NCBI GenBank assembly: GCA_029775965.1
Contig: JARVJU010000007.1
Span: 10,695-74,694, forward strand
Direction: 5' to 3'
Origin: Nitrososphaeria archaeon
Lineage (GTDB): Archaea; Thermoproteota; Nitrososphaeria; Conexivisphaerales; DTJL01
Length of the DNA stretch: 64,000 bases
A program made the position numbers and the translations under genes. Under the pieces are notes generated by a model that was not told the DNA's origin, made no database searches, and saw only the letters and a list, made by a program, of their open reading frames with translations. Shown here one piece after another: positions 21,628 to 63,968 of this stretch. Position 1 is the first letter of the stretch. Every line of letters starts with the position of its first letter.

Positions 21628-21716
21628 GCCGCGGTAGCTCAGCCTGGGAGAGAGCGCAGGCCTCTAACAATCGGCTGAAGACCGATGTGTCGCAGGTTCA
21701 ACTCCTGCCCGCGGCA
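21628..21716 (+). tRNA. tRNA-Phe(GAA) with a 13-nt non-canonical intron in the 3' D-stem (about 21655..21667)
   Basis: Acceptor GCCGCGG/CCGCGGC plus A73. Anticodon arm ATCGG CTGAAGA CCGAT. T-arm GCAGG TTCAACT CCTGC. BHB-like motif: helix AGAG/CTCT, bulges AGC and AAC. Mature length 76 nt. Confidence 0.88.
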
Positions 21717-33782: not shown

Positions 33783-34799
33783 TTGAAGGCTGTCAGACTG
33801 GAAAAGGACGGTAGGCTGAACTATTCTGATGTAGATATGCCAGAGAATATAGAAGCTGATGAAGTGTTGTTAAAGGTTGATATGACAGGCATATGCTACA
33901 GAGATATTCTAACAGTAGACGGGTTCTTTCCAAACACCAAGTTCCCTGTAACTCTTGGGCATGAAATAACGGGCAAAGTTGTAAAGAAAGGCAACTCTGT
34001 AAGTGAATTTGAAGTAGGGGAAAGGGTTGCAAGCCTGATCTATGAACCATGCGGCAAGTGTGAAGAATGCTTGGCTGGAAGAGAAAACCTCTGCAGGAGA
34101 AGAAAGACTTTTGGCGAAGATATAGATGGCTCTTATGCTGAATATGTGAAGGTTAACCAAAGAGCTCTTGTGAAGGTACCACAACAAGTAAACAGCGAAG
34201 GAGCTGCAATAGCTGCATGTGTCACAGGAATGCTTGTTCACGCATTCAAAAAGAGAGGCAATCTGCAGTCTGATGAGACTGTCCTTGTAACAGGAGCAGG
34301 TGGAGGAGTAGGTGTGCACGCAGTTCAGATAGCTAAAGCATTAGGTGCAAATGTGATAGCTGCCACATCATCTAGCTGGAAGGCAGATGCGATAAAGAAG
34401 TATGGCGCAGATCATGTCATTGTGTATAACGATAAGTTCAGCGATCAGGTAAAGCAGATAACTGATGGTAAAGGTGTTGATCTAGTATTGGATTCTGTGG
34501 GTACGCCTACTCTGCAGGATAGCATAAGGAGTAGCAGGTGGGGTGGCAGAGTGGTGCTTGTAGGTAATGTAAAGCCAGAGCCTATCGATATTATGCTTGG
34601 CATACTTATCCTTAGAGAAAATACTATAATGGGAAGTCTCAGCTCTACAAGAGAGGATGTCAAAGTTGCTCTTGACATGACTGCAAAAGGTTTGATCAAG
34701 CCTGTTATTCATCAGGTATTTTCACTTGCAGATGCAGAGAAGGGGCATGATGTGATGCGGAATAAATCCTCTCTTGGAAGAATTCTGCTCAGACCCTGA
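33783..34799 (+). CDS. Zinc-type medium-chain dehydrogenase/reductase (candidate enoyl/acryloyl-CoA or aldehyde reductase)
   Basis: GICYRD...GHE catalytic zinc ligands, structural zinc CGKCEECLAGRENLC, Rossmann VTGAGGGVG. Confidence 0.8.
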   Translation: MKAVRLEKDGRLNYSDVDMPENIEADEVLLKVDMTGICYRDILTVDGFFPNTKFPVTLGHEITGKVVKKGNSVSEFEVGERVASLIYEPCGKCEECLAGRENLCRRRKTFGEDIDGSYAEYVKVNQRALVKVPQQVNSEGAAIAACVTGMLVHAFKKRGNLQSDETVLVTGAGGGVGVHAVQIAKALGANVIAATSSSWKADAIKKYGADHVIVYNDKFSDQVKQITDGKGVDLVLDSVGTPTLQDSIRSSRWGGRVVLVGNVKPEPIDIMLGILILRENTIMGSLSSTREDVKVALDMTAKGLIKPVIHQVFSLADAEKGHDVMRNKSSLGRILLRP

Positions 34800-35286
34800 T
34801 GCTTAAAAGCTTCTGTCCCCTTTTTACAACATCATCCTTTTTTACTAGCACCTCAGCAACAACACCATCTACATCAGCCCTAAGTGCTGTCTCCATCTTC
34901 ATCGACTCTATTATTACTACTTCATCCCCAAGCTTAACAGCATCCCCAGGCCGGACAAGCACAGAAATCACTTTACCTGGCAATGGAGAATACAGCTCCT
35001 CCATCGATGAAGAGTTCCTCTGACCCTCTCTTCCAGCTTTTCTAGCAATTTTGAACTCTTCGCCGTTTATTCTTAGCAGAATGAAATCTATCCCTTCATC
35101 AACAAGCTCCACATTGAAACTCTTTTCATTCAGCATTACTGAAACTTCATTTTTATTCACGTAAGATAATGAAGCATGATAGCTCTTACCATCTAAAGCA
35201 AGCGAAAACAGATTCTCATCATCAGAATCAGACTTTATCTCTACTCCAAATCTTACGCCATCAACTTCAAGCTCATAGTAGGTCAT
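34789..35286 (-). CDS. accB: Biotin carboxyl carrier protein
   Basis: C-terminal biotinyl domain with IIESMKMET (variant of the EAMKM biotinyl-lysine motif). Confidence 0.8.
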   Translation of the reverse strand: MTYYELEVDGVRFGVEIKSDSDDENLFSLALDGKSYHASLSYVNKNEVSVMLNEKSFNVELVDEGIDFILLRINGEEFKIARKAGREGQRNSSSMEELYSPLPGKVISVLVRPGDAVKLGDEVVIIESMKMETALRADVDGVVAEVLVKKDDVVKRGQKLLSIRV

Positions 35287-36793
35287 AGTACCTTTGAACC
35301 TCTTGTCTATTTCTTATTGCATAATCTTCCAGTTCTGTAATTCTGTGTATACCTTTAGCTGTTATCATAGCCGCTATTGCTGCAGCAACGGCAGCCTTTT
35401 CTCTTCTTTCCCTGTTTCCTTTCTCAACCATCATCTCTATTATTCTGTTCTTTTCTATGAAGTCAGTGCTCAATTGCCAAGAAGCAAAGGAGCTGCTGTT
35501 TATGACTTCTTTGTGAAATGGTAATGTGGTTCTCAGACCCTTTACACTGAACTCCTCCAGAGCTACAGACATTCTTCTTCTTGCCTCATCTACATCCTTT
35601 CCCCAGGCGATCAGTTTGGCTATCAAAGAATCATAGTACTCTGGTACACTCCATCCTGAATAGATAGCTGTATCTACCCTTATCCCTGGGCCGCCTGGTA
35701 GATGTATATCATGAATAATACCTGAATTTGGTGCAAAATTCTGCAAAGGATCCTCTGCGTTTATTCTGCATTCTATGGCTGCACCGTTCCTTCTCACTTC
35801 ATTCTGGCTTAATGATAAGCTCTCCCCTGCAGCTATCCTCAACTGCTCCTCAACAAGATCAACTCCTGTTACCTCTTCTGTTATAGGATGTTCAACCTGA
35901 AGCCTAGAATTTACCTCCATAAAATAGAAATTTCTATCACTATCAAGCAAGAATTCTACTGTGCCCGAGTTTTTATAGCCTACAGCTCTGGCAACCTTAA
36001 TAGCATAAAGTCCAACTCTTTCTCTCATCTCTTCGTCAACAGCGGGAGAAGGTGTTATCTCTATGAGCTTCTGATGCCTTCTCTGGATGCTGCATTCCCT
36101 CTCACCAAGATGAATTATCTTACCCTTACCATCAGATAATATCTGAACTTCTATATGTCTTGCAGGCCTTATCAGCTTCTCAACATATATAGCTGCTCTT
36201 CCGAAGGCGCTATTTGCTTCCCCAACAGCTCTGCTCCAGTTCAGCTTAACATCTTCATCACTATCAACTTCTCTTATTCCTAGTCCCCCGCCACCAAAAG
36301 CAGATTTAAGAAGAACAGGGTATCCAAGTTCATTAGCTTTGTCTATAGCTTCCTCCATAGATTCTACAGGATTAATAGTGCCAGGGATAGCTGGAACATT
36401 CTGACTATTGGCTAGTCTTTTACATTCTACCTTGTTGCCAGTGGTAACAAGTGTTTCTGAGCTAGGGCCGACGAATGTTATTCCTTCATCTTTGCATGCT
36501 TTGGCAAAATTAGAGTTCTCTGCAAGGAATCCATAGCCTGGATGAATAGCCTCTGCACCTGATTTTTTTGCAATGCCTATTATTGCATCTATATTCAGAT
36601 AGCTCTCCTTTGCAGGTGATGCGCCTACTCTGAAGGCCTCATCAGCAAGCATACAATGCAGTGCATCTTTATCAGCATCAGAATATATCGCTACTGTCTT
36701 TATTCCCATTCTCTTGCATGTCCTGATTATTCTAACTGCAATCTCTCCTCTGTTTGCTATGAGAACTTTGTTCATCATATGCATATCATCCAT
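35273..36793 (-). CDS. accC: Biotin carboxylase subunit of acetyl/propionyl-CoA carboxylase
   Basis: NKVLIANRGEIAVR, ATP-grasp core, EVNSRLQVEHPITE. Several Met codons occur at the N-terminus (36793-36775). Confidence 0.95.
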   Translation of the reverse strand: MDDMHMMNKVLIANRGEIAVRIIRTCKRMGIKTVAIYSDADKDALHCMLADEAFRVGASPAKESYLNIDAIIGIAKKSGAEAIHPGYGFLAENSNFAKACKDEGITFVGPSSETLVTTGNKVECKRLANSQNVPAIPGTINPVESMEEAIDKANELGYPVLLKSAFGGGGLGIREVDSDEDVKLNWSRAVGEANSAFGRAAIYVEKLIRPARHIEVQILSDGKGKIIHLGERECSIQRRHQKLIEITPSPAVDEEMRERVGLYAIKVARAVGYKNSGTVEFLLDSDRNFYFMEVNSRLQVEHPITEEVTGVDLVEEQLRIAAGESLSLSQNEVRRNGAAIECRINAEDPLQNFAPNSGIIHDIHLPGGPGIRVDTAIYSGWSVPEYYDSLIAKLIAWGKDVDEARRRMSVALEEFSVKGLRTTLPFHKEVINSSSFASWQLSTDFIEKNRIIEMMVEKGNRERREKAAVAAAIAAMITAKGIHRITELEDYAIRNRQEVQRYYDLL

Positions 36794-36797
36794 CTAT

Positions 36798-38369
36798 CTA
36801 TAGGGGTATGTTACCATGCTTCTTTCTTGGCCTAAATTCACTCTTATCTCTCAAAGAATCCAGAGCAGATATCAGCTTCGGCCTTGTCTCAGCCGGGTCA
36901 ATGACTTCATCTATTATACCTCTGCCTGCAGCTATGTATGGATTGGCAAACTTCTGCCTGTATTCCTTTATCAGAGCCTGTCTTCTCTTGGCTTTATCAT
37001 CAGCTGCATCTATCTCCTTCCTGAATATTATATTTACAGCACCTTCTGGACCCATGACTGCTATCTCAGCTGTAGGCCAGGCGTAGTTTATATCAGCCCT
37101 GCTGTACTTTGAGCCCATTGCGCAGTATGCTCCTCCATAGGCCTTTCTTATTATAACAGTAACCTTAGGAACTGTGGCTTCACAGTATGCAAAGAGTAAC
37201 TTCGACCCATGCCTTATTATCCCACCATGCTCCTGTTCTATACCAGGTAAGTAGCCTGGAACATCCACAAAAGTTACTATAGGTATGTTGAAAGCATCAC
37301 AGAACCTTACAAACCTTGCGGCCTTGTTTGATGAGTCTATATCCAAGGAGCCTGAAAGGTGTGATGGCTGATTTGCAACCACACCTATACTGTAACCATC
37401 CAGCCTTGCAAACCCTACAGTTATATTCTTCGCCCAATCTTTATGCATCTCAAGGTATTCGCCATCATCCACAACCCTTGCTATTATATCTCTGATGTCA
37501 TATGCTCCGTTGGGGTCTGGAGGTAAAATATACCTCAGGTTAGGGTCAGTTCTTGTTGGACTATCCCTTGGCTTTACCCTAGGTGGAGGTAACGAATTAT
37601 TCTGTGGCAGATAAGTTAGTAATCGTCTTACAAGGGAGAAGCTCTGGTCTTCATTATCTGCAACAAAGTGTGCAACCCCGCTCTTTTCTGAATGGACCTC
37701 ATATCCTCCAAGCTCTTCGAATGTCACCTGCTGCCCTACTGCTGCCTTAACCACATCTGGCCCTGTGATGAACATGTTGCTTATCCCTTTCACCATTATC
37801 ACCATATCAGTAAGAGCTGGAGAGTATACAGCTCCACCAGCAGTAGGACCCGCTATCAGACTTATCTGAGGCACAACGCCTGAAGCCAAAGTATTACGAA
37901 AGAAGATCTCACTGTATGCTGCAAGGCTTACCACACCTTCCTGTATCCTTGCTCCACCAGAATCGTTTATCCCTATAATTGGAGCACCGTTCTTCATCGC
38001 TAAATCCATTACCTTCGTTATCTTTCTGCCGAAAGCCTCTCCTAAAGAACCTCCGAAGACTGCAAAATCATGAGCGAAGATGTACACCAGCCTGCCGTTG
38101 ATCTTACCATAACCTGTGACAACTCCGTCTCCAAGAGGTCTGTTCTTATCTAGTCCAAAATCTGTAGACCTGTGAGTTACAAATTTATCGATCTCCTGAA
38201 ACGTACCAGGGTCAAGTAGCCTCTGTATTCTCTCTCTAGCTGTATACTTCCCTTTTTTGTGCTGCGACTCTATCTTGTCTTTCCCTCCTGCCACCTCTGC
38301 CTCTCTGTTCATCCTTCTGAAATCTTCAAGCCACTCCGGCTCTGACATGGCGTTATGTTTTTTCTCCAT
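36798..38369 (-). CDS. pccB: Acyl-CoA carboxylase carboxyltransferase (beta) subunit
   Basis: 523 aa. DSGGARIQEG and GGAYCAMG crotonase-fold carboxyltransferase blocks. Confidence 0.95.
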   Translation of the reverse strand: MEKKHNAMSEPEWLEDFRRMNREAEVAGGKDKIESQHKKGKYTARERIQRLLDPGTFQEIDKFVTHRSTDFGLDKNRPLGDGVVTGYGKINGRLVYIFAHDFAVFGGSLGEAFGRKITKVMDLAMKNGAPIIGINDSGGARIQEGVVSLAAYSEIFFRNTLASGVVPQISLIAGPTAGGAVYSPALTDMVIMVKGISNMFITGPDVVKAAVGQQVTFEELGGYEVHSEKSGVAHFVADNEDQSFSLVRRLLTYLPQNNSLPPPRVKPRDSPTRTDPNLRYILPPDPNGAYDIRDIIARVVDDGEYLEMHKDWAKNITVGFARLDGYSIGVVANQPSHLSGSLDIDSSNKAARFVRFCDAFNIPIVTFVDVPGYLPGIEQEHGGIIRHGSKLLFAYCEATVPKVTVIIRKAYGGAYCAMGSKYSRADINYAWPTAEIAVMGPEGAVNIIFRKEIDAADDKAKRRQALIKEYRQKFANPYIAAGRGIIDEVIDPAETRPKLISALDSLRDKSEFRPRKKHGNIPL

Positions 38370-39176: not shown

Positions 39177-39701
39177 TCAGTTTATATCTAGTTGCTTAAG
39201 AGTAGAAAGAAGTATTTTCTGTTTATACTCCTGATCATCTGATTCATCAAAATAGGGGTAGATGACAGGCAATGTTACCCCAGATTTTGTAAAGTGATCT
39301 ATTAGATCAGCTAGGGATGAAGGAGAAGGGTTGAACAAAGAGATTCTAGCAAGAGATTCAGGGACATATACTCTTCCTGCAGCCAGCTCTTCTTTTGCAT
39401 GCAGTATATCTTCATGTACACCATCTACAATGAACATCTTCTGGTACTGGGGTAAAGAATCATAATTTGCAAACTCCTGTATCATATTTCTCTGAGCTAT
39501 CTTCACATCATGGGAGTAGAATATCTTGATGTAGCATGCAAATTCCGCATCTCCTTTATGCTCAGACCTGAAAGAGCTTATCACCCTGCCCGCATGCTCT
39601 GCAGAGCAGAAATTCATCAGTATTCCATCACCTGAAGAGCCACAAAGAAGCCCACACTCTTTAGAGGTGGGAGGAATTGCTGCAGGCTGTTTATATAACA
39701 A
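39177..39701 (-). pseudogene. Probable 5'-truncated luciferase-like (LLM/F420-dependent) oxidoreductase fragment
   Basis: The 174 aa correspond only to the C-terminal half of LLM-family proteins (GSSGDGILMNF..., ...NPSPSSLADLIDHFTKSGVTLPVIYP). The N-terminal half is absent, and the fragment ends 28 nt from the tnpB start. Confidence 0.35.
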
Positions 39702-39729: not shown

Positions 39730-40919
39730 TTGCATCGTGCTATTCTCCTCCAGACAGAAGCAACAACACATAAACGAAGTGTTCTTAACAGATTCATGGC
39801 AAAGTCTGTTGCATATGCCAATCTAGTGCTTGATAACAGATTGCCTTATGACTCTGCCTCTTCTCTTCAGACTAGAATGTATCAAATGGGGAAGAAGGAG
39901 TATGGATTCAATGCACAAGTCATATGTGAGATAATTCGAACAATAGCAAACTCCAAAGGAAAAAATGTGAATAGCATAACAATCAAGTTCAACATACCCA
40001 GAAACTGCAAGACATTTCGAACAAAGGGGTTCTTCTTTGTCGAACTGGGGCTCTATCCTAGGCATAGGATTGCCATACCAATACGAAAGAACCAAAACTT
40101 CGACAGGTTCAATGATTTGCTTGGAAACGGATGGACATGCAAGACGTTTGGTTTAACTCCAACTCTGGATATAGTTGCTTATCTGTCGAAGAAAGACGAA
40201 CCACTGGCATCGAGAAGGAATGTCCTAGGTATAGATATCAACGCCAAGAACTTCGCCTATACTGTCCTGACTCCAGAAGGGAAGATCCTCAAACAGGGAT
40301 ATCTAGGGCAACAAATATGGATTAAGAAGAGGCATTTTGAAGAGCGAAGAGCTATCTTATCTTACAGCACTTTAACAACCTGAAGCGATTGAAGAGGATG
40401 AGGCATAAGAAGAGGAATTATGTGAAGACAGGCATAGGGCAGATGGTTAGAGATATAATTCTTCTAGCTAAAAGATATAATGCTGACATCTCTGTCGAGA
40501 AGTTAAAGAGGTTCAAGCCAAAGGGCAGAATCTTCAACAGAAAGGTTATGACTATACCACTAGCTCTCTTCAGAAGAATACTTGAAGCGAGATGCTTTGA
40601 TCATGGGATTATGCTGAACAGAGTTGATGCTTACCATACAAGCAAATGGTGTTCCCATTGCTGTGCTGTTGGGAATGGACATGATGGAAGCATATACTCT
40701 TTGTTCAGATGCAAAGAATGTGGCCAGGTTGTAAATGCAGATAGAAAGGCAAGCTTGGCTGTAGCTATCAAAACTCTGGTGTTGCGGAAGCGATTCCTAA
40801 CAAGAAATGGTTCCAGATTAACACCAGAAGAGTCCCTGTCAACTAGCTTATGCATGGCTCTTATGCACATGGGCTGGAGGCTGTGCATAAACCAGTCCTG
40901 GGAAGGGGCAAGCCCATGA
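39730..40919 (+). pseudogene. tnpB: tnpB (OrfB) RNA-guided nuclease gene, interrupted by a frameshift near 40340-40385
   Basis: Two ORFs in different frames (39730..40383 and 40389..40919). RuvC-I LGIDIN, RuvC-II ISVEKL, zinc finger CSHCC...CKECG, RuvC-III NADRKASLAVA. Combined length is about 393 aa. Confidence 0.8.
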
Positions 40920-42379: not shown

Positions 42380-42504
42380 GCCGTCGTTGGTCTAGTGACC
42401 GACGAAAGCTCAGCGTGGTAGAGCAGCTGACTTTGACCTGGAAGGCTGACGCTGTTAACCACGCAGAGACCAGCTGGTCGCAGGTTCGAGTCCTGCCGAC
42501 GGCG
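42380..42504 (+). tRNA. tRNA-Asn(GUU) with three introns (42388..42406, 42430..42450, 42458..42468)
   Basis: Spliced product: GCCGTCG TA GCTC AGCGTGGTA GAGC A GCTGG CTGTTAA CCAGC TGGTC GCAGG TTCGAGT CCTGC CGACGGC G (74 nt, G73). Each intron is bounded by a BHB motif with cleavage after the second bulge nucleotide. Confidence 0.85.
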
Positions 42505-54973: not shown

Positions 54974-54989
54974 TTTAACTAGCGTTAAA
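54974..54989. promoter_or_regulatory. 16-bp perfect palindrome, candidate TetR operator
   Basis: TTTAAC-TAGC-GTTAAA in the trpS/tetR divergent intergenic region, just upstream of a TATA-like gattatata box about 30 nt before the tetR start. Confidence 0.35.
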
Positions 54990-55037
54990 TAGATTAAGAT
55001 ATGATTATATACCATAGTATGCAATGCCCTTCAGGAT

Positions 55038-55616
55038 TTGAGCTTCCAGCAGCTAGCAAGTGAAAAGATACTAGATGTTGCATCCAAACTCTTCGCACAG
55101 AAGGGCTATTCAAATGTTTCTGTTAGAGAGATATGTAAAGAAGCAGGGACTACGCCTCCTATGATATATTACTATTATGGAAGCAAAAGAGGGTTGTTTG
55201 ATGCTGTCAGGAGAGATAGAATATCCCTCAGAGAATTCGTGAAACAGCTGGCATCGAGTTTAACTATAAATGAAGCTAGAGAGTCTCTCTCCAAATTCGT
55301 AAAGATGTACCTGGATAATTTTCCTGAAGATGCTTTTGAGCTTGGGCTGTATATAGATGATAAAGAGCCACTGAGCAAAGAAAATACGAAAAGAATTCTG
55401 AATTATTTTACTCAGATTCATAAAATAGCTACCTCGATAATAACAAAGGGTGTTAAAAGTGGAGAATTTAACGAGAGCAATCCAGAAGTCTCTGCTGATT
55501 TGTTGATAGGCCTCTTAAATCATTTCGTATTCCGTAGAATACATTTTTCCAAAAACTTTGATACCAGCAAGACAGCTAGCTACATTACTGACTTCTTTCT
55601 AAGAGCAATGAGGTGA
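55038..55616 (+). CDS. TetR/AcrR family transcriptional regulator
   Basis: The N-terminal HTH ASKLFAQKGYSNVSVREICKEAGTTPPMIYYYYGSKRGLF is a textbook TetR signature. Confidence 0.85.
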   Translation: MSFQQLASEKILDVASKLFAQKGYSNVSVREICKEAGTTPPMIYYYYGSKRGLFDAVRRDRISLREFVKQLASSLTINEARESLSKFVKMYLDNFPEDAFELGLYIDDKEPLSKENTKRILNYFTQIHKIATSIITKGVKSGEFNESNPEVSADLLIGLLNHFVFRRIHFSKNFDTSKTASYITDFFLRAMR

Positions 55617-55621
55617 AATGA

Positions 55622-56881
55622 ATGAGCAAAGGCCAAGTTCGTCAGAGATATGCTACAGACCTTTTTTTAATCGGTACGTCATTTAAGACGTCTCCTTTAC
55701 ATATAAGAGAAGAGCTGCTAAGGCAGATCTATTTTCATGGCATAGATATTAGCAGCAGAGCACATATTAATGAATATGCCATACTGCAAACATGCAATAG
55801 GATAGAAGTATATGCAGCTACTGACGACATTGATTCTGCTGTAAAATGGATGCAAGAATCTTTCTTGAATGGTTTTAATAAAGAATATTTCTATATAAAG
55901 ACAGGAGTAGATGCTATAGAGCATCTTTACATGGTAGCTTCTGGCCTTGATTCGATGCTGCTGGGCGAAGATCAGATTCTCGAGCAGGTAAGAAGAGCTG
56001 GCATCGATTCAAGAAGGCAGGGGATGGCAAAGGGGATACTTTCAACCTTGTTTGATACTGCAGTGTCAACAGGAAAGAAGGTAAGAAGTATTATTCCTAA
56101 GAACGATGATAACAGATCGATAGGCTCTTTTGCAATACGATTCGTTAAAGAAAAGACAAATTTGGATAAAGATTCCAGAATTTTGCTTATAGGAACAGGA
56201 AAGACAATTCTCCTAGCAAGTAGAGAGCTTCCTGTAGATCCTTCACATATCTACTTGGCCACAAAGAGAAGCAACACTCCCAAAGGGTTGGAGGGGGCTC
56301 TTGTGATACCATACTCAAAGATACCTCAAGCTGCAGATGATAGTGACCTTATAGTTTCTGCAACTAACAGCTTTGAGTTCGTGCTAAGGAAGGAGTTCTT
56401 CTCCACTAAAAGGAAGAGACTGATTATAGACCTTGCAGTACCAAGAAACGTTGACCCAAGGGTGAAAGAAGTGGAAGGTATAGAGCTCTATACACTGGAT
56501 GACCTGAGCGAAAGATTCAATGATATGTCAAGAATCACACCTGAAGAAAGACAGAAGGCTCGGATGCTTGCTAGAGAAGAAGCAGAAAGATTCAGGCGCT
56601 GGCTTATCGCTTCTAGATTGAGCCCTACACTGTCCGAGCTTTACAAATGGGCTGAGGAATTGAGAGAGCAGGAAATGCACAGGGTAAAGAGCAGACTGTA
56701 TAATGATTCAGAAATAAAATTGATTGAAGTAATGAGTAAGAGGCTGCTCAGCAGGTTATTGTATCCGCCTACGGAATATGTGAAATCTGCAAAAGACCAG
56801 GGTCAAGAGTTGAGGAGGCTGGAGACTGTAGCTAAGGTGTTTGGACTGACGAACAATGCAGAAGATAAGGATAGGAACTAG
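55622..56881 (+). CDS. hemA: Glutamyl-tRNA reductase
   Basis: LQTCNRIEVY catalytic Cys block, GLDSMLLGEDQIL, Rossmann LIGTGK. Confidence 0.9.
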   Translation: MSKGQVRQRYATDLFLIGTSFKTSPLHIREELLRQIYFHGIDISSRAHINEYAILQTCNRIEVYAATDDIDSAVKWMQESFLNGFNKEYFYIKTGVDAIEHLYMVASGLDSMLLGEDQILEQVRRAGIDSRRQGMAKGILSTLFDTAVSTGKKVRSIIPKNDDNRSIGSFAIRFVKEKTNLDKDSRILLIGTGKTILLASRELPVDPSHIYLATKRSNTPKGLEGALVIPYSKIPQAADDSDLIVSATNSFEFVLRKEFFSTKRKRLIIDLAVPRNVDPRVKEVEGIELYTLDDLSERFNDMSRITPEERQKARMLAREEAERFRRWLIASRLSPTLSELYKWAEELREQEMHRVKSRLYNDSEIKLIEVMSKRLLSRLLYPPTEYVKSAKDQGQELRRLETVAKVFGLTNNAEDKDRN

Positions 56882-57806
56882 GAAAAGTAACCTTGCTATT
56901 GCACAGGCAAGTATTGTAGCTAATATGCTCATAAAGGCCAATAGTGAACTTGAGGTCGAGCTGGTTAAGATAAGCACTCTGGGAGATAAGAATGCTTTGC
57001 ATGGAAGATTAAAGCAAGATATGAAGACTGCTTTTACAAAAGAGCTGGAGGTAGCTCTGATAAATGGCGAGATAGATGCAGCAGTTCACAGCCTTAAGGA
57101 CTTACCCTCAGCATTACAGGATGGTCTGATAGTAGCTTCGTATCCTCCCAGGGATGACCCAAGGGATGTGTTAGTTAGTAAGAATAAAGTAAGTCTGAAT
57201 ATGCTGCCTGCAAACGCAAGGATAGGAACGAGCAGCATCAGAAGAAGAGTTCAACTTCTACAGCTCAGGCCTGACCTTCAAGTTGTAGAGCTTCATGGTA
57301 ATGTGGATACAAGGGTAAATAAAATGCAATCACTGGGTCTGGACGGAATAGTGCTCGCAGCAGCAGGCCTCAACAGACTTGGTATGCAAGAAGTGATCTC
57401 TCAGGTCTTTGACGTGGGAGAAATGATTCCTGCCGCAGGCCAAGGTATACTTGCAGTAGAAACCAATGAGAAAAATTCTTTTTTGGAACAGTTAAGGAGT
57501 ATAGATGACCCAAAATCAAGGGCAGAGGCTTTATGCGAAAGATCCTTTACCGCAGCATTAGGCGCAGGCTGCAACCTGCCAGTAGCTGTAAATGCAAAAT
57601 CCTATGGTGCAAAGCTAGAAATCCAGGCTATGATAGCTAGTCAGGATGGTAGCAAAGTCATAAAAGCTAGAGATTCTGGAAGCACCTCTGACCCAGAAGG
57701 TCTTGGAAAAAAGTTAGCAATCGATATGCTGAACAGAGGTGCTGAGTTTTACCTGAAAGAGGTTGCCGAACTTGAATACAAAGGTGATACTGGCAAGATC
57801 AAGTGA
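56856..57806 (+). CDS. hemC: Porphobilinogen deaminase (hydroxymethylbilane synthase)
   Basis: IRIGTRKSNLAIAQ, AVHSLKDLP, GTSSIRR, and the dipyrromethane Cys context GAGCNLP. Confidence 0.9.
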   Translation: MQKIRIGTRKSNLAIAQASIVANMLIKANSELEVELVKISTLGDKNALHGRLKQDMKTAFTKELEVALINGEIDAAVHSLKDLPSALQDGLIVASYPPRDDPRDVLVSKNKVSLNMLPANARIGTSSIRRRVQLLQLRPDLQVVELHGNVDTRVNKMQSLGLDGIVLAAAGLNRLGMQEVISQVFDVGEMIPAAGQGILAVETNEKNSFLEQLRSIDDPKSRAEALCERSFTAALGAGCNLPVAVNAKSYGAKLEIQAMIASQDGSKVIKARDSGSTSDPEGLGKKLAIDMLNRGAEFYLKEVAELEYKGDTGKIK

Positions 57807-58509
57807 GGGAAACTTCGCTCTAGCAAGAGAGCTGGAGAAGGTTGGGCTGCAGCCTATTCAGATTTCCACCGTTGAGTTTGAACCTCCTGAAGACTGGTCA
57901 GACGTAGATAAAGAGCTGAGAAGCATTGAAAATTATGATTGGTTGGTTTTCACATCATCTACCTCAGCAAAGTTCTTCTTGGATAGAATTAGAACTTTAA
58001 GAGTTCAATTACCTGATCTAAAAATAGCTGCTGTTGGATCAAAAACAGCTGCTGTACTTACAGCCAATGGTATCAGGGTTGACTTTATCCCTTCCAGATT
58101 CACTACGCAAAGATTAGCTATGGAGCTTCCGAAAAATGGTAATAGGGTATTGCTTCTTAGGGCAGATATAGCTGATGAACAGATGCTGATAAGTCTTCAG
58201 AATAGGGGGTTTAATGCAAAACAGGTAGCTGTTTACAGAAGTGTTGCTGTATCATCAAAGTACGCTTATGAAGAATTTTATGAAGCAAAGGCGATTCTGT
58301 TCGGAAGTGCTTCTGAAGTAAGAAATTTCTGCAGGATAGTTCCAGAAGACTTGCTTGACAGATTAAGAAAATCAAGCGTTGCTGCATGCATAGGTCCTGT
58401 AACAGCAGGAGAGGCAAAAGCTGAGGGTTTTTCCAATATATTAATACCCAAGGAGTATACTTTTGAATCTCTAATCTTGGAGCTGATACGTTACATTGAA
58501 AGAGAATGA
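57784..58509 (+). CDS. hemD: Uroporphyrinogen-III synthase
   Basis: About 241 aa HEM4-like two-domain pattern (WLVFTSS, AAVGSKTA, ACIGPVTA). Start GTG 57784 or TTG 57763. Confidence 0.7.
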   Translation: MILARSSEGNFALARELEKVGLQPIQISTVEFEPPEDWSDVDKELRSIENYDWLVFTSSTSAKFFLDRIRTLRVQLPDLKIAAVGSKTAAVLTANGIRVDFIPSRFTTQRLAMELPKNGNRVLLLRADIADEQMLISLQNRGFNAKQVAVYRSVAVSSKYAYEEFYEAKAILFGSASEVRNFCRIVPEDLLDRLRKSSVAACIGPVTAGEAKAEGFSNILIPKEYTFESLILELIRYIERE

Positions 58510-58516
58510 TAGTTAT

Positions 58517-59491
58517 ATGCTGAGATACAGACCAAGGAGGCTGCGAAGGACTGAAGAGATCAGGGAAATGGTGCGTGAAACAAGCTTGAACATATCAAAT
58601 TTCATCACACCAGTCTTCGTCAGAGAAGGAAATGGTATAGCTGAGGAGATAAAAAGCATGCCTGGTATATACAGATATACCCTTGACAAGCTTCCAAGCT
58701 ATCTTGCAAGTCTGCTCAATAAGAAGCTTAGAAGCATCATAATCTTCGGCATCCCAAGCGTAAAGGATGAAATGGGAAGCATGGCTTACTCAAAGGATGG
58801 GATAGTGCCAAGAGCCTTAAGACTGATCAAAAGAGAATACCCAGAGCTTGTTGTTGCTGCAGATGTATGTCTTTGTGAGTATACTTCGCACGGGCATTGT
58901 GGAGTTCTGAAGAAGGGGAGTGTAGATAATGATTCCACACTGAAGCTGCTAGCTAGAGCAGCTGTAGAATATGCTAACTCTGGAGCTGATATCGTTGCGC
59001 CAAGTGCAATGATGGATGGTCAGGTATCAGCGATAAGAGAGGCTTTGGACGAAAATGAATTAAAAGATACTATAATCATGTCTTATTCAGCAAAGCACGC
59101 TTCCGCTTTTTACGGCCCGTTCAGAGAAGCTGCTGAGTCAGCCCCAAGCTTTGGTGATAGAGCTAGCTATCAGATGCAGTACACAAATTCAAGGGAAGCT
59201 ATAAGGGAGATTCAGCTGGATGTTGAAGAGGGTGCTGATATAGTCATGGTGAAGCCTGCTTTGGCATACTTGGATATAATTTCGAAGGCAAGAGGGCTTA
59301 TCAATATTCCAATAGCTGCTTACAACGTAAGCGGAGAATATTCTATGCTTAAAGCTGCAGCAAGGCTGGGATGGCTTGATGAAGGAAGGGCTATGATCGA
59401 AATACTGACAGCTATCAGAAGGGCAGGGGCAGACCTTATAATAACCTACTTTTCTGAAAGGGCAAGTGACTTGTTAAGGGGGGAGCTGTAA
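58517..59491 (+). CDS. hemB: Porphobilinogen synthase (ALA dehydratase)
   Basis: YRPRRLR, zinc site DVCLCEYTSHGHCG, active-site Lys blocks SAMMDG and MVKPAL. Confidence 0.9.
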   Translation: MLRYRPRRLRRTEEIREMVRETSLNISNFITPVFVREGNGIAEEIKSMPGIYRYTLDKLPSYLASLLNKKLRSIIIFGIPSVKDEMGSMAYSKDGIVPRALRLIKREYPELVVAADVCLCEYTSHGHCGVLKKGSVDNDSTLKLLARAAVEYANSGADIVAPSAMMDGQVSAIREALDENELKDTIIMSYSAKHASAFYGPFREAAESAPSFGDRASYQMQYTNSREAIREIQLDVEEGADIVMVKPALAYLDIISKARGLINIPIAAYNVSGEYSMLKAAARLGWLDEGRAMIEILTAIRRAGADLIITYFSERASDLLRGEL

Positions 59492-60213
59492 TGGATGAAA
59501 CAGCTACAAGTCTGCAGAACAAAGAATTTGCAAAGAGAAAGATACTAAAATACAACTTCTTCAAAGTAGATAGAGAGTGGAAGGTTTTACAGAGTGAAAA
59601 AAAGAAGGAAGCTATTGCTGAGTTTATACAGATCGTCGAGAGGCATTTATCCAGCATTCAGATGAAATTTTATTCTCTTGTTGGTATAAGGGCTGATGCT
59701 GACTTTATGGTATGGATTATAGCAGATGAGATAGAGGACATTCAGAAATTTTACTCAGAACTTAACAGAAGTATACTCGGCAAATATCTTGAAACAACCT
59801 ATGCCTATACAGCTATGTCCAGACGTTCTAGGTACATTGCAGGTCATACACATGAAAATCAGGAAGGGGTTAGCGAAACCAGATTGCAGGGAAATTCAAA
59901 ATATCTCTTTGTCTATCCTTTTGTTAAGAAGAGAGAATGGTACAAACTGCCTTACAAGGAGAGGTTAAGAATGATGGCGGAGCATTTTAAAATAGGGCAC
60001 AAATATCCAAGCGTAAAGATAAACACAGGGTATTCGTTCGGCCTTGATGATCAAGAATTTGTTCTAGCCTTCGAATCAGATAGCTTGGCTGATTTTCTAG
60101 ACCTTGTAGAGGAACTGAGGGAATCAGATGCAAGCGCTTATACGCTTAGAGACACCCCGTCCTTCACATGTTTGGCTACGGAGCCAGAGCAGCTGCTGAT
60201 GATGCTTGGTTGA
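59491..60213 (+). CDS. hemQ: Chlorite-dismutase-family protein, HemQ/ChdC-like coproheme decarboxylase candidate
   Basis: 240 aa. FVYPFVKKREWYKLPYKERLRMMAEHFKIGHKY matches the HemQ/Cld-like core. It sits inside the hem operon with TAATG and TTGA overlaps. Confidence 0.75.
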   Translation: MDETATSLQNKEFAKRKILKYNFFKVDREWKVLQSEKKKEAIAEFIQIVERHLSSIQMKFYSLVGIRADADFMVWIIADEIEDIQKFYSELNRSILGKYLETTYAYTAMSRRSRYIAGHTHENQEGVSETRLQGNSKYLFVYPFVKKREWYKLPYKERLRMMAEHFKIGHKYPSVKINTGYSFGLDDQEFVLAFESDSLADFLDLVEELRESDASAYTLRDTPSFTCLATEPEQLLMMLG

Positions 60214-61499
60214 TATCAAATAAGCAGAATAGGTCAGATTACCTCTACGAGAGGGCATTGAAAGTTATGGTAGGGGGTGTAAACAGTCCTGTCAGGTCAT
60301 TCAGAGCGGTAGGAGGGAAACCCATCTTTTTCCGGAAAGGCAAAGGATCAAGGCTGTTCGATGTGGACGGAAAAAGCTACTTGGATTATGTCTGTTCCTG
60401 GGGAGCTCTTATACTTGGACATGCCGATGATGAAGTAACAGAAGCTATATGCAGGGCTGCGATGGAAGGGACAAGCTTCGGTGCACCCTGCGAGGCAGAA
60501 GTGAAGCTTGCTGAAGAAGTTACAGAAAGAATGAAAAGCGTAGAAATGGTCAGGTTTGTAAATTCTGGTACAGAGGCTACAATGTCAGCTATAAGGTTGG
60601 CTAGAGGTTATACAGGTAAAAAGAAGATAATAAAATTTGCAGGTTGTTACCACGGACATTATGACTCATTTTTGGCAGATTCGGGATCTGGGATGGCTAC
60701 TTTTTCCATACCTATATCTGCAGGAGTGATAGATGATACGATAAAGCATACACTGACCCTGGCGTACAATGATGTAGCAATGCTAGAAAATGTCATGGCA
60801 GAATGGAGAGACGATGTAGCTGCTGTTATATTAGAGCCCATTGCTGGGAACATGGGCGTTGTTCCAGCAAGCAAAGAGTTTATCGAAAAGGCAAGAGAGC
60901 TCTGCGATAAGTACAATTCTTTACTCATCTTCGACGAAGTTATATCAGGATTCAGAGTTGCAAGGGGTGGAGCGCAAGAGCTCTACGGGATCAAGCCAGA
61001 TATAACATGCTTGGGCAAAATAATCGGAGGAGGCATGCCTGTAGGTGCCTATGGAGGAAGTAGACAGATAATGAAGCATATAGCGCCAGAAGGAAATGTG
61101 TATCAAGCTGGTACTCTAGCCGGAAACCCTGTAGCTATGTCTGCGGGATTGGCAACTCTCAGAAAGCTTGGTATGCAGCAGTATGAACAGCTGGAAAGAT
61201 TATCATATATGCTTGAGCATGGAATAAAAGCTGCAGCTGAAGAAAATAAAGTAAGCATCAGCATAAACAGGGTTGGGTCGATGATAGGGATATTTTTTAC
61301 AGATAGTGATGTTAAGAATTATGTAGATGCCAGAAAGACAGATGCTAAAGCTTACTCCAAATTCTTTCATTACATGCTTACTTTAGGAGTTTATCTTCCT
61401 CCTTCTCCTTTTGAGACAGTATTTCTTAGCACTTCCCATTCTGATGAGGATATAAGAATGACTGTTGAAAGTGCTTCGAAGGCTTTTCAAGTGATATAG
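60210..61499 (+). CDS. hemL: Glutamate-1-semialdehyde 2,1-aminomutase
   Basis: GGVNSPVRSF, FDEVISGFR, and pyridoxal Lys context CLGKIIGGG. TTG 60210 overlaps the hemQ stop. Confidence 0.9.
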   Translation: MISNKQNRSDYLYERALKVMVGGVNSPVRSFRAVGGKPIFFRKGKGSRLFDVDGKSYLDYVCSWGALILGHADDEVTEAICRAAMEGTSFGAPCEAEVKLAEEVTERMKSVEMVRFVNSGTEATMSAIRLARGYTGKKKIIKFAGCYHGHYDSFLADSGSGMATFSIPISAGVIDDTIKHTLTLAYNDVAMLENVMAEWRDDVAAVILEPIAGNMGVVPASKEFIEKARELCDKYNSLLIFDEVISGFRVARGGAQELYGIKPDITCLGKIIGGGMPVGAYGGSRQIMKHIAPEGNVYQAGTLAGNPVAMSAGLATLRKLGMQQYEQLERLSYMLEHGIKAAAEENKVSISINRVGSMIGIFFTDSDVKNYVDARKTDAKAYSKFFHYMLTLGVYLPPSPFETVFLSTSHSDEDIRMTVESASKAFQVI

Positions 61500-62519
61500 T
61501 TGACTCATGTATTTCTTGATGCATGTAAAAGAAAGAAAGTAGAATATACGCCTGTATGGTTCATGAGGCAGGCTGGCAGGTATCTGCCCAGTTATGCAAA
61601 GATGAAGGGGAATAGAGGTGTGTTGCAAGCAGTAAAGGACCCAGAGCTTGCCTCAGATATAGCGGTAGAGCCTGTCAAGCTACTGGGAACTGATGCTGCA
61701 ATAATCTATGCAGACATAATGATTCCTCTTGAAGCGATTGGTATAGATCTTAGCATAAAAGAGCATTACGGGCCTTTAATAGCAAGGCCTTTCAAAAGTG
61801 AAAAGGATGTAGAAAGAATAAAGGAGCTAAAGCCAGAGAAGCTATACTTTCTGGGGGAAGCAATTAAGAAGATTAAAGCGAAATTACAAAAATCCATACC
61901 TGTAATAGGCTTTTCTGCAGCCCCTTTTACCTTGGCAAGCTATCTGATAGAGGGAGGCCCGAGTAGTGATTTTGTAAAGACCAGAATGGCTATGCATGAC
62001 GAGATTCTCTGGCAAAAAATAATGGGTTCTCTTGTAGACCTGATCTCTGATTATCTAGCCTATCAGGTTGAATATGGTATAGATGCTGTGCAACTCTTTG
62101 ATAGCTGGGCAGGTGCGGTATCCAGCTCAGACTACGAGAGATTCATTCTTCCGTATACTAAAAGAGTATTCTCAAATCTACCAGCGAACTTACCCAAGAT
62201 ACACTTCTGCGCCAATTCTTCACACCTGATCGAGAAGTTCGCACAGACAGGAGCGGATGTATTATCTGTCGACTGGAGGGTTGACATCGCATCTGTCTGG
62301 AAGAGAACTGATGAAAAGCTTGCAGTGCAGGGTAACCTTGACCCTGCTCTTGCCGTAGTTGGCGGAAAGGAGATGCAGCTAGCTGTCAGTAAAATAATGC
62401 AGGCTGCCTATGGGCACAAAGGTCACATATTCAACCTGGGCCATGGAGTGCTGAAAGAGACAAACCCCGAAAATTTGAAGAAGATAGTAAAGATTGTTCA
62501 CAGATGGGAGATGGCATGA
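61500..62519 (+). CDS. hemE: Uroporphyrinogen decarboxylase
   Basis: TPVWFMRQAGRYLPSY signature. 339 aa. Confidence 0.9.
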   Translation: MTHVFLDACKRKKVEYTPVWFMRQAGRYLPSYAKMKGNRGVLQAVKDPELASDIAVEPVKLLGTDAAIIYADIMIPLEAIGIDLSIKEHYGPLIARPFKSEKDVERIKELKPEKLYFLGEAIKKIKAKLQKSIPVIGFSAAPFTLASYLIEGGPSSDFVKTRMAMHDEILWQKIMGSLVDLISDYLAYQVEYGIDAVQLFDSWAGAVSSSDYERFILPYTKRVFSNLPANLPKIHFCANSSHLIEKFAQTGADVLSVDWRVDIASVWKRTDEKLAVQGNLDPALAVVGGKEMQLAVSKIMQAAYGHKGHIFNLGHGVLKETNPENLKKIVKIVHRWEMA

Positions 62520-63391
62520 AGGCGATACTTCTTACTGCTTATGGCTCTCCTTCCAACCTTGATGATGTGGAGAGATATTATACACACATAAGAGGAGGTA
62601 GAAAGCCTACAGAGCAGCAGCTCAATGAGTTGGTTGAAAAGTACAGAAGAATAGGAGGTTCTCCACTGCTTCAGATTACATTTAGTCAGGCTAAGGCGCT
62701 TGAAGCCATGATAAAAAGCAAAGGAACTGATGTCAAAGTATACTTTGGCATGAAACATTCCCATCCTTTTATATCTGAGGTTATGGAGGATGTTAAGAAT
62801 CATGGTATAGATTCTCTGCTTGTAATACCTCTAGCCCCCCACTATTCCAGGCTGAGCACAGAAGGCTACATAAAGGCGGTGGAAGATTCAAAGGGATCAG
62901 TAAATACTCATTACGTAAAGTCATGGCATAATCAGCCTGAGTTTATAGATGCATGGGCAAACAATATATTGAGATTTAAGGGTGATTTCCATCTACTATA
63001 CTCTGCACACAGTCTTCCCGAGAGAATAATAAATGAAGGTGACCCTTACAGACAGGAACTGCTAGAGACCTGCAGCCTTATAAATTCAAAGGTTAACCCG
63101 AGAAGATGGAGTTTCGCCTTCCAGAGCGCGGGGAGGACTGATGAGAAGTGGCTAGGGCCAGACATATTGGAACACTTGGAATCTCTGTACAATCTAGGTG
63201 AAAGGAATTTTCTTGTAGCTCCTATAGGCTTTGTGTCAGACCATCTTGAGGTTCTGTATGATATTGATGTAGAATGCGTAGAATGGGCAAAGAGAAAGGG
63301 TGTAGAGCTGAAGAGGTGCCCCTCGTTTAACGACTCACACGAATTTATTTACTGTCTATACTCGATAGCAAAGAACTATGGATATGCATGA
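62516..63391 (+). CDS. hemH: Ferrochelatase (soluble, Bacillus-like size)
   Basis: ILLTAYGSP, YSAHSLPERI, GFVSDHLEVLYDID. ATGA overlap with hemE. Confidence 0.85.
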   Translation: MKAILLTAYGSPSNLDDVERYYTHIRGGRKPTEQQLNELVEKYRRIGGSPLLQITFSQAKALEAMIKSKGTDVKVYFGMKHSHPFISEVMEDVKNHGIDSLLVIPLAPHYSRLSTEGYIKAVEDSKGSVNTHYVKSWHNQPEFIDAWANNILRFKGDFHLLYSAHSLPERIINEGDPYRQELLETCSLINSKVNPRRWSFAFQSAGRTDEKWLGPDILEHLESLYNLGERNFLVAPIGFVSDHLEVLYDIDVECVEWAKRKGVELKRCPSFNDSHEFIYCLYSIAKNYGYA

Positions 63392-63546
63392 ATAAAGAGG
63401 CTCTATCTCTTAGCTCTTGCAATAATGCTAGCATCAAGGAAAGAGTTCAGCTCTTTAGCCTGCCTGAGCTTCCATGAACCCTTATGGTATGCATATGCTG
63501 CAAGCAAGGGAAATGTGACTGTAGCTTATAAATATAAATCTTTGTG

Positions 63547-63729
63547 TTACTCCTTTAAGACATCCTTGATTCTTATCCTCTGCATATTTGAAGCAGAGGC
63601 GCAATTATTACAGATAAGTATTCTCTTCCTGACCTTGTATACTTTATGGTCTTTACCAATCACCTCTTGCTCTACAGTCTGTATAGACATGGGTGTGCCG
63701 CATACAGGACAATTGAATGGTATTATCAT
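63547..63729 (-). CDS. Small zinc-ribbon protein (hypothetical)
   Basis: 60 aa with CPVCG...CNNC. ATGA-coupled to the upstream 80-aa ORF. Confidence 0.3.
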   Translation of the reverse strand: MIIPFNCPVCGTPMSIQTVEQEVIGKDHKVYKVRKRILICNNCASASNMQRIRIKDVLKE

Positions 63730-63968
63730 AGTATAAAACCTACAGAGTTTAAATCATTCTGAGTCAGCATTCCAAGCTGTAAATACAGCCTCACCAGAGC
63801 CTCTACCGTATCTGGATATCCTTGGGGTTTTCTGAAATCAGGTAAAGAAAACCAATGGGTACTTTTTTCAATCTGCTGGAACAAGGGTAGCCTAAGTAAT
63901 CTTCTCTCCGCATTTGAAAGAGGAGGGAATCCACGTGCAGCCCTTACCTGCTCTATCTCTGCCTCCAT
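63726..63968 (-). CDS. Small hypothetical protein
   Basis: 80 aa ORF with an ATG start, translationally coupled to the zinc-ribbon ORF. No motif recognised. Confidence 0.25.
   Translation of the reverse strand: MEAEIEQVRAARGFPPLSNAERRLLRLPLFQQIEKSTHWFSLPDFRKPQGYPDTVEALVRLYLQLGMLTQNDLNSVGFIL

Follow-up and report, generated by a model that had tools for sequence, protein, structure and literature searches.

A TetR-headed gene cluster in a Conexivisphaerales archaeon that probably encodes heme synthesis by a coproporphyrin-dependent route

Organization of the tetR-hem locus

The locus described here lies on contig JARVJU010000007.1 (assembly GCA_029775965.1), which belongs to a metagenome-assembled genome (MAG) of the archaeal order Conexivisphaerales (Nitrososphaerota). 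A stretch of 64,000 nucleotides of this contig was analyzed and is called the window below. Between window positions 55038 and 63391, nine open reading frames (ORFs) on the + strand form a candidate heme biosynthesis operon in the order tetR, hemA, hemC, hemD, hemB, hemQ, hemL, hemE and hemH. Gene families were assigned with Pfam and NCBIfam profiles, and the NCBIfam bit scores were compared with the curated cut-offs. The ORF coordinates and these assignments bore out all nine genes and their order as listed in the original prediction. The genes and the predicted operator in front of them are as follows.

54974..54991, no strand: predicted TetR operator, the palindrome TTTAAC-TAGC-GTTAAA (54974-54989) followed by TA, 47-64 nt upstream of the tetR start codon
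55038..55616, + strand: TetR-family regulator, 192 aa, first gene of the operon (PF00440 66 bits; TetR_C_24 34 bits)
55622..56881, + strand: HemA, glutamyl-tRNA reductase, 419 aa (TIGR01035 253 bits, cut-off 209.55; GlutR_N, Shikimate_DH and GlutR_dimer domains)
56856..57806, + strand: HemC, hydroxymethylbilane synthase, 316 aa (TIGR00212 322 bits, cut-off 164)
57763..58509, + strand: HemD, uroporphyrinogen-III synthase, 248 aa (PF02602 183 bits; gene callers place the start at 57772, giving 245 aa)
58496..59491, + strand: HemB, porphobilinogen synthase, 331 aa (NF006762 477 bits, cut-off 297; one caller places the start at 58517)
59491..60213, + strand: HemQ, a ChdC-like protein of the chlorite-dismutase family, 240 aa (PF06778 207 bits)
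60168..61499, + strand: HemL, glutamate-1-semialdehyde 2,1-aminomutase, 443 aa (TIGR00713 624 bits, cut-off 527)
61500..62519, + strand: HemE (UroD), uroporphyrinogen decarboxylase, 339 aa (TIGR01464 378 bits, cut-off 303; PF01208 362 bits)
62504..63391, + strand: HemH, predicted CpfC-type ferrochelatase, 295 aa (TIGR00109 229 bits, cut-off 125)

The junctions between the genes were tight, with gaps of at most 5 nt or short overlaps. In particular, tetR and hemA were separated by 5 nt, hemA and hemC overlapped by 26 nt, overlaps were also present at hemC/hemD and hemD/hemB, and hemB shared a single nucleotide with hemQ. The overlap of hemQ with hemL was 46 nt, hemL and hemE followed each other without a gap, and hemE and hemH overlapped by 16 nt. 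The UroD of the coproporphyrin-dependent (CPD) route was present, as the TIGR01464 score of HemE exceeded the curated cut-off.

Diagnostic residues of HemH and HemQ

We compared HemH with ferrochelatases of solved structure. The B. anthracis ferrochelatase (221 bits) and the coproporphyrin ferrochelatase (CpfC) of L. monocytogenes (LmCpfC, 209 bits) matched it best, and human protoporphyrin ferrochelatase (PpfC) scored ~104 bits. In LmCpfC, T14, Y46 and S53 hold propionate 4 of coproporphyrin III and Y124 holds propionate 2, which are the two propionates missing from protoporphyrin, and R45/R29 hold propionates 6/7 (PMC9794026). Upon alignment, the LmCpfC residues Y12, T14, R29, R45 and Y46 corresponded to Y13, S15, R30, K46 and Y47 of the window HemH, and S53, Y124, H182 and E263 corresponded to S53, Y122, H169 and E249. 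The four contacts to propionates 2 and 4 (T14/Y46/S53/Y124) were therefore present as Ser/Tyr/Ser/Tyr, and the catalytic H169 and E249 were retained. At the proximal position, Firmicute CpfC has Tyr, actinobacterial CpfC has Phe and human PpfC has Met (PMC10427985); the window HemH has Tyr13 there, and not Met. By every sequence criterion available, HemH is a predicted CpfC-type enzyme; both the similarity scores and the diagnostic residues support the coproporphyrin-type pathway that had been proposed.

The closest solved relatives of HemQ were the coproheme decarboxylases (ChdC) of Streptomyces coelicolor (113 bits) and C. diphtheriae (CdChdC, 97 bits). Y142 (catalytic Tyr), H165 (proximal His) and H119 (distal His) of HemQ aligned with Y135, H158 and H118 of CdChdC, and all three residues were invariant among 27 relatives. 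The profile match to PF06778 and the AlphaFold model (predicted local distance difference test score, pLDDT, 77.5) both revealed a chlorite dismutase (Cld)-family fold with a C-terminal heme-binding ferredoxin-like domain. The model matched ChdC and Cld structures equally, with template modeling (TM) scores of 0.6-0.75, so only the residues discriminate between the two activities. The catalytic Arg of Cld is located about 13 residues past the proximal His (H160 and R173 in NdCld). Arg was absent throughout HemQ residues 161-209, both in the sequence and in the alignment, which means that the catalytic Arg whose role in Cld has been described (PMC7611857) has no counterpart in this segment. HemQ thus carries what appears to be the catalytic residue set of a coproheme decarboxylase of the actinobacterial type, without the Cld Arg; the ChdC-like character originally assigned to it was upheld by the conserved Tyr and the two His residues.

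We also observed HemQ homologues with 44-47% identity to that of the window at six further loci (L045, L067, L068, L075, L082 and L086). There they belong to hemA-C-D-Q-L(-B) clusters, and neither hemE nor hemH was present within 10 kb. This HemQ clade is therefore used in a second genomic context as well, one that may be fed by a siroheme route.

The TetR regulator and its predicted operator

The structural model of TetR contained 10 helices (pLDDT 81.6) and matched TetR structures, with an N-terminal helix-turn-helix domain and an all-helical C-terminal domain. The C-terminal domain was well conserved, and His169 was invariant. The family is small: 46 proteins were found at E<=1e-10, and the members with a name belonged to Nitrososphaerota or Conexivisphaerales. 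TetR orthologues with 36-58% identity headed the same cluster in L014, L019, L020, L024 and L026. The regulator that the original prediction had placed at the front of the operon is therefore conserved in the clusters of related loci.

An inverted repeat expected of a TetR operator was found by a script at the promoter of tetR itself, as a perfect palindrome of two 6-nt arms; a repeat search with a minimum length of 8 missed it. The right arm of this predicted operator runs into the TATA-like sequence TTAAATA (54985-54991), and the core TAACNNNNGTTA occurred only twice in the window. A second TATA-like box is located at 55005-55011. We scanned ~1.05 Mb of sequence, comprising the window and the fetched loci, with the 16-mer consensus TAACGAACGTTAAATA, allowing up to 3 mismatches. 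Apart from the site in the window, TAACGAACGTTAAATA was matched a short distance before the leading gene of the homologous clusters in L003, L014 (twice), L019, L020, L021, L023 and L026, which brings the number of loci with the motif at this position to 8. A single weak match was found outside the homologous clusters in the ~1.05 Mb scanned.

Two of these clusters, L021 and L023, contain no tetR, and the motif was still present 37-45 nt before hemA. On the 1,467,662-bp contig of L021, the tetR orthologue (P0257, 50% identity; locus L102) was located ~235 kb from the cluster, and the related site TTCAACAATGTTAAATAAAG was found 44 nt upstream of this unlinked gene. Additionally, palindromes of the TTTAAC/GTTAAA type were present upstream of the stand-alone tetR orthologues in L103 and L104. 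The conservation of the motif, at loci of both Nitrososphaerota and Bathyarchaeia type and in front of unlinked tetR orthologues, points to a dedicated regulon of a putative heme-cluster TetR.

From the position and conservation of the motif, we infer that TetR would bind the operator, would be autoregulated and would have the heme operon as its regulon. In the proposed mechanism, a TetR dimer would bind TTTAAC-N4-GTTAAA, which overlaps the TATA-like box, and would control the transcription of tetR and of the operon behind it. The simplest mode would be that TetR occludes TBP/TFB at the TATA box and the B recognition element.

Conservation and mobility of the cluster

The gene order [tetR]-hemA-C-D-B-Q-L-E-H was observed again at seven loci (L007, L019, L020, L021, L023, L024 and L027). 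The carriers were the GTDB genome 'archaeon isolate 13_2' (L007), a Nitrososphaerota MAG (L020), near-complete contigs of 1.57 Mb (L019; ERZ25039491 contig_32965) and 1.47 Mb (L021; Ga0484001_0000001), and several contigs from metagenomes of soil and peat (L023, L024 and L027). A Bathyarchaeia MAG (L014) and a locus of the same type (L026) contained the order tetR-hemC-D-B-Q-E-H.

Neighbor-joining trees of HemH, HemE and HemQ revealed congruent groupings, namely a Conexivisphaerales/Nitrososphaerota group that included the window, a Bathyarchaeia-type group and a Micrarchaeota group, interleaved with long-branch Firmicute, Chloroflexi and Nitrospirota sequences. Phylogenies of these three proteins had been proposed as a check for acquisition from bacteria. 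The congruence indicates that the three late genes travel together, but the trees leave the direction of transfer between the domains undecided.

A related Conexivisphaerales genome (L103; GCA_038872495.1, JAVZJZ010000002.1, 5455-11645) provided a view of the locus without heme genes. Its tetR orthologue adjoins a deoxyhypusine synthase (DS) gene with no hem genes between them, and the TrpRS-class synthetase encoded upstream of tetR is 69% identical to that of the window. In L004 and L020, DS comes after hemH. As tetR stands beside DS without hem genes in L103, the 7.8-kb hemA-hemH block was inserted between these two genes or deleted from there. The block is thus gained or lost as a whole and is a presence/absence polymorphism within Conexivisphaerales. 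Among the families of this order, aerobic ones (with coxAB) and microaerophilic ones (with cydAB) need heme, and others are anaerobic; gain and loss of the block fits this split (PMC10833072).

The ORFs directly after hemH (63425-63736 in the window, 14031-14411 in L019 and 14001-14381 in L021) had no Pfam match and were not conserved between loci. On the - strand of the window, an ORF for a 60-aa zinc-ribbon protein (63547-63729; CPVC...CNNC) overlaps by 4 nt with an upstream ORF (63726-63968) that extends further in the sister contig. Together, the two ORFs (63547-63968) take the place where the sister MAGs L004 and L020 have DS directly after hemH; this module had no Pfam match and may be toxin-antitoxin-like or a mobile insert.

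A radical SAM neighbor of related clusters

The only recurrent extra neighbor of the archaeal hemQ/hemE/hemH clusters was a gene for a radical SAM/SPASM protein of family TIGR04053, which was absent from the window; a tblastn search of the window with this AhbD-like protein also gave no match. The genes found at the related loci were as follows.

L011, 11515-12657: TIGR04053 radical SAM gene
L014, 3352-4500: TIGR04053 radical SAM gene
L019, 4264-5400: TIGR04053 radical SAM gene
L024, 3-431: TIGR04053 radical SAM gene
L026, 1472-2638: TIGR04053 radical SAM gene
L038, 1957-3048: TIGR04053 radical SAM gene

The proteins scored 443-489 bits with TIGR04053 (cut-off 395) and 267-315 bits with the AhbD model (cut-off 500). 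In L014, L019 and L026, the radical SAM gene precedes tetR, and the operator motif lies immediately before it. An oxygen-independent coproheme decarboxylase is still listed as unidentified for the CPD route (PMC10965808), and the AhbD-related TIGR04053 protein may be such an enzyme.

In three Micrarchaeota loci, we also observed 'HemC' ORFs of ~550 aa, about the length of HemC plus HemD (L011 12658-14340; L015 10891-12564; L016 1116-2768). These are probably HemC-HemD fusions.

Host and genomic context

The remainder of the window confirmed an archaeal host, as the original prediction had stated. It encodes a LysW/LysX amino-acid biosynthesis cluster, a PriX/PriL primase subunit and archaeal-type synthetases, and a member of the 90% protein cluster is named 'Conexivisphaerales archaeon'. 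Two over-long tRNAs on the same contig are consistent with intron-containing archaeal tRNAs.

21628-21716: over-long tRNA, 89 nt (Rfam RF00005; ARAGORN gives no anticodon)
42399-42503: over-long tRNA, 105 nt (Rfam RF00005; missed by ARAGORN)

The same HemQ and HemH were encoded identically in three NCBI assemblies (GCA_038734905.1, GCA_038883915.1 and GCA_038727985.1). The upstream neighbors were also alike in the three assemblies, namely pyruvate kinase, an MR/MLE enzyme, enolase and a class-Ib aminoacyl-tRNA synthetase (TrpRS/TyrRS-class). GC content was even over the hem region.

Elsewhere in the window, two adjoining ORFs (39730-40919), the second with a Cas12f1-like TNB domain, resemble a TnpB/IS200-605-type remnant that is apparently split. 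The sister contig JAVYOB010000024.1 starts at about window position 39556, and the TnpB-like repeat probably breaks that assembly. On the - strand, genes for a biotin carboxyl carrier, a biotin carboxylase and a carboxyltransferase (34789-38369) form an acetyl/propionyl-CoA carboxylase set, as in the thaumarchaeal 3-hydroxypropionate/4-hydroxybutyrate carbon fixation cycle, or for anaplerosis.

The proposed pathway and its alternatives

An operon that combines HemE with a CpfC-type HemH and a ChdC-type HemQ bears the signature of the CPD route. We consider it probable that the locus is a single TetR-controlled operon for the de novo synthesis of heme b by a CPD-type route in a Conexivisphaerales archaeon. 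The enzyme activities, the substrate specificities and the oxidation step of this route are inferred as follows. HemA and HemL would convert Glu-tRNA to 5-aminolevulinate, HemB, HemC and HemD would carry this to uroporphyrinogen III, and HemE would yield coproporphyrinogen III. Coproporphyrinogen III would then be oxidized to coproporphyrin III by an agent outside the operon, which may be a coproporphyrinogen oxidase (CgoX) encoded elsewhere, a non-orthologous oxidase or O2 by auto-oxidation. The CpfC-type HemH would insert iron to give coproheme, from which the actinobacterial-type ChdC (HemQ) would form heme b by H2O2-dependent decarboxylation of propionates 2 and 4.

Several results weigh against this interpretation. 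The heme pathway as encoded in the operon is incomplete, with one step absent. A tblastn search of the window with four CgoX sequences (three bacterial and one archaeal) gave no match, and no Amino_oxidase (CgoX/HemY) or DUF1444 (CgoN/YtpQ) family was found among the window genes with Pfam; the earlier statement that no CgoX/HemY gene lies in or beside the cluster held for the whole window. CgoX was likewise not found within 10 kb of the clusters L007, L013, L014, L019-L021, L023, L024, L026 and L027, and CgoN, HemF/N/G/J and Ahb genes were also missing from the 10-kb flanks of at least 10 related archaeal clusters. The best NCBIfam model for HemQ (NF042928, HemQ_actino) gave 158.9 bits against a cut-off of 235, and the HemQ model NF008913 gave 90 bits against a cut-off of 253, so that HemQ stayed below the equivalog level and is the one soft assignment among the nine genes; it represents a divergent archaeal clade. 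Sequence and fold searches with TetR returned generic matches only (PfmR, FadR and FasR, with TM scores <0.6), with no clue to a ligand and no HrtR among them. TetR regulators usually leave the DNA on ligand binding, a behavior that does not readily suggest control of biosynthetic genes by their end product. The search for a public sequencing run with the locus found none. Finally, the order has a single cultured member, which is strictly anaerobic (PMC10833072), whereas ChdC needs H2O2.

Two ways of closing the gap at the oxidation step were weighed. The pathway may be a standard and complete CPD pathway with a canonical CgoX, a HemY-type flavin adenine dinucleotide (FAD) oxidase, elsewhere in the genome, in which case only the host would be unusual; we regard this as a real possibility, somewhat short of even. 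The window is only part of the genome, and CgoX does occur in archaea: a Micrarchaeota MAG encodes it within its cluster (L011, 10035-11510; TIGR00562 266 bits, cut-off 98) with the order hemQ-hemH-CgoX-rSAM-hemC-hemE, where rSAM is the radical SAM gene, and a Marsarchaeota homologue was named among the relatives of archaeal CgoX. A metagenomic locus (L090) joins hemQ-hemE-hemH with CgoX, its HemQ being 48% identical to that of the window, and bacterial relatives of the window HemH (Alicyclobacillus and Nitrospiraceae) lie in hemE-hemH-hemY clusters. This explanation is opposed by the lack of CgoX within 10 kb of at least 10 Nitrososphaerota- or Bathyarchaeia-type clusters and, as a weak test, by the best 120 relatives of the Micrarchaeota CgoX in a set of 5.8 billion proteins, none of which was named Nitrososphaerota or came from a contig as long as those with the clusters (1,572,808, 1,467,662, 348,893 and 75,033 bp). 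Complete Thermoplasmatales genomes with hemE and hemH are likewise without hemY or hemG (PMC3004389), and this speaks for the other solution, in which coproporphyrinogen III would be oxidized independently of CgoX, either by a non-orthologous enzyme that has gone unrecognized or by O2 in a warm, acidic and (micro)oxic habitat. The consistent absence of CgoX from the archaeal Nitrososphaerota- and Bathyarchaeia-type clusters agrees with such a variant, and there are precedents in the replacement of CgoX by CgoN/YtpQ, a non-homologous oxidase in Bacillaceae, and in the auto-oxidation of coproporphyrinogen III, which is measurable in air (PMC10965808). However, no candidate oxidase gene was conserved beside the clusters, and their sole recurrent neighbor, the AhbD-like radical SAM gene, is found together with CgoX in L011 and is missing in the window. 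Because the searches reached over the window and the cluster flanks, we hold CgoX-independent oxidation to be about as likely as a CgoX encoded elsewhere. Oxidation of coproporphyrinogen by HemQ itself was considered and dropped, as S. aureus HemQ stimulates the oxidation of protoporphyrinogen and not of coproporphyrinogen (PMC5095920).

Other explanations would set the CPD route aside altogether. In a hybrid scheme, the siroheme-dependent Ahb pathway would supply coproheme, HemQ would replace AhbD under aerobic conditions, and HemE and HemH would have another role or be relics. Haloferax indeed uses a ChdC-domain protein without uroD, cgoX or cpfC (PMC5746218; cf. PitA), and the hemA-C-D-Q-L-B clusters with related HemQ proteins and no nearby hemE or hemH would suit this scheme. 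Nevertheless, we judge it improbable: hemE and hemH are intact and translationally coupled to the operon, exceed their equivalog cut-offs and vary together with hemQ from lineage to lineage, and HemH retains the coproporphyrin-specific contacts. Moreover, no other tetrapyrrole gene was found in the window, where HemF/N, a flavodoxin-type HemG, HemJ, SUMT, PC2-DH, AhbA-D and radical SAM genes were looked for. Still less likely, in our view very much so, is a classical protoporphyrin pathway with an unrecognized decarboxylase and oxidase, in which the HemQ-like protein would be a chlorite dismutase or a heme binder unrelated to synthesis. The equal fit of the predicted HemQ fold to Cld and ChdC and the scores below the NCBIfam HemQ cut-offs would allow it; the missing Arg in residues 161-209, the invariant catalytic Tyr and distal His of HemQ, the proximal Tyr and kept propionate contacts of HemH, and the lack of any HemF/N/G/J/Y gene in the window all oppose it. 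The closest solved relatives of HemH and HemQ come from Firmicutes and Actinobacteria, which could raise the suspicion of a bacterial contig that was mis-binned or mis-assembled into an archaeal MAG. This we consider next to negligible, since the hem cluster is contiguous with the LysW system, PriX/PriL and the intron-bearing tRNAs in one window, GC content is uniform across the region, and the TrpRS-tetR-DS synteny is common to a relative. In particular, the identical locus with the same neighbors and junctions in three NCBI assemblies argues that it is no assembly or binning artifact.

A CPD-type operon therefore stays our preferred interpretation. A bolder version of it can be put forward only tentatively, and we think it rather unlikely to hold in full: Nitrososphaerota and Bathyarchaeia would possess a distinct archaeal CPD pathway without any CgoX, in which oxidation would be non-enzymatic or fall to a non-orthologous enzyme, TetR would act as a dedicated sensor of heme, porphyrin or redox state on a palindrome overlapping the TATA box, and in some lineages the TIGR04053 protein, as part of this regulon, would provide an oxygen-independent last step.

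Comparison with known heme pathways

We compared the locus with the CPD pathway of Firmicutes and Actinobacteria (UroD-CgoX-CpfC-ChdC). With the oxidation step left aside, as no CgoX is near, the same enzyme family was encoded in the window at every step, and the shared features extend to the Firmicute-type proximal Tyr and the propionate 2 and 4 contacts of HemH and to the actinobacterial-type residues of HemQ. The window thus mixes a Firmicute-like CpfC with an actinobacterial-like ChdC. It differs from the bacterial systems in its archaeal host, in the lack of a nearby CgoX and in the TetR gene at its head with a conserved predicted operator. Early and late genes are in one operon in the window, with hemQ between hemB and hemL, whereas B. 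subtilis has hemEHY plus hemQ and carries the early genes in hemAXCDBL. Among known regulators, HrtR of Lactococcus lactis is a heme-sensing TetR-family repressor with a palindromic operator in its own promoter, and it controls a heme efflux pump. The window TetR resembles HrtR in its family and in its predicted link to heme, but HrtR serves efflux and not biosynthesis, and it was absent from the sequence and fold matches of the window TetR.

Among archaea, Picrophilus torridus, Thermoplasma acidophilum and T. volcanium contain hemE and hemH with no hemF/N/G/Y and no ahb-nir genes, and their route was 'currently unclear' in 2010 (PMC3004389). The T. acidophilum protein Ta0507 (PDB 3DTZ) has already been listed as a ChdC (PMC7611857). 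Like the window, these Thermoplasmatales combine bacterial-type hemE and hemH with a Cld-family ChdC-like protein and no recognizable hemF/N/G/Y; unlike it, their early hem genes are scattered, judging by the locus tags (PMC3004389), and no regulator has been described. Ta0507 is also distant from the window HemQ (54 bits, with only residues 128-224 aligned). Haloferax volcanii uses the ChdC domain of PitA for the aerobic last heme step after the Ahb route (PMC5746218) and so resembles the window in having an archaeal ChdC-type enzyme. However, it lacks uroD, cgoX and cpfC, obtains coproheme via siroheme, and has PitA fused with an ABM-like domain, whereas the window encodes HemE and HemH, with no Ahb genes close by.

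In view of these precedents, the novelty implied by the original prediction was overstated: archaeal hemE and hemH without ahb genes had been reported by 2010 (PMC3004389), and an archaeal ChdC, 3DTZ, had been listed (PMC7611857). In the literature searched, we found no account of the CPD pathway in Thaumarchaeota/Nitrososphaerota, and neither the operon nor its TetR and operator had been described for Nitrososphaerota or Bathyarchaeia; for both, an earlier remark by Dailey and colleagues (2015, 2015, 2017) is possible. The chemistry is that of the known CPD pathway, and what is new is the archaeal lineage, the TetR-palindrome pair and the consistent absence of CgoX from these clusters. We regard the novelty as moderate. 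If confirmed, the absent CgoX and the TetR-operator pair would make this a distinct archaeal variant.

Implications

Thermoplasmatales and ammonia oxidizers without AhbC/AhbD have been open cases of heme synthesis since 2010 (PMC3004389, PMC4010524). The present results add a coproporphyrin-type set, one step short, as a conserved and mobile operon in non-ammonia-oxidizing Nitrososphaerota and Bathyarchaeia-type genomes. The locus, from an uncultured hot-spring archaeon, supplies a predicted thermophile-derived CpfC and ChdC, a defined missing-oxidase problem and a candidate archaeal pair of heme regulator and operator. It also bears on the proposed tie between oxygen adaptation and gene gain and loss in Conexivisphaerales (PMC10833072). 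If its predicted role is true, the TetR protein would be the first regulator described for the transcription of heme biosynthesis genes in an archaeon.

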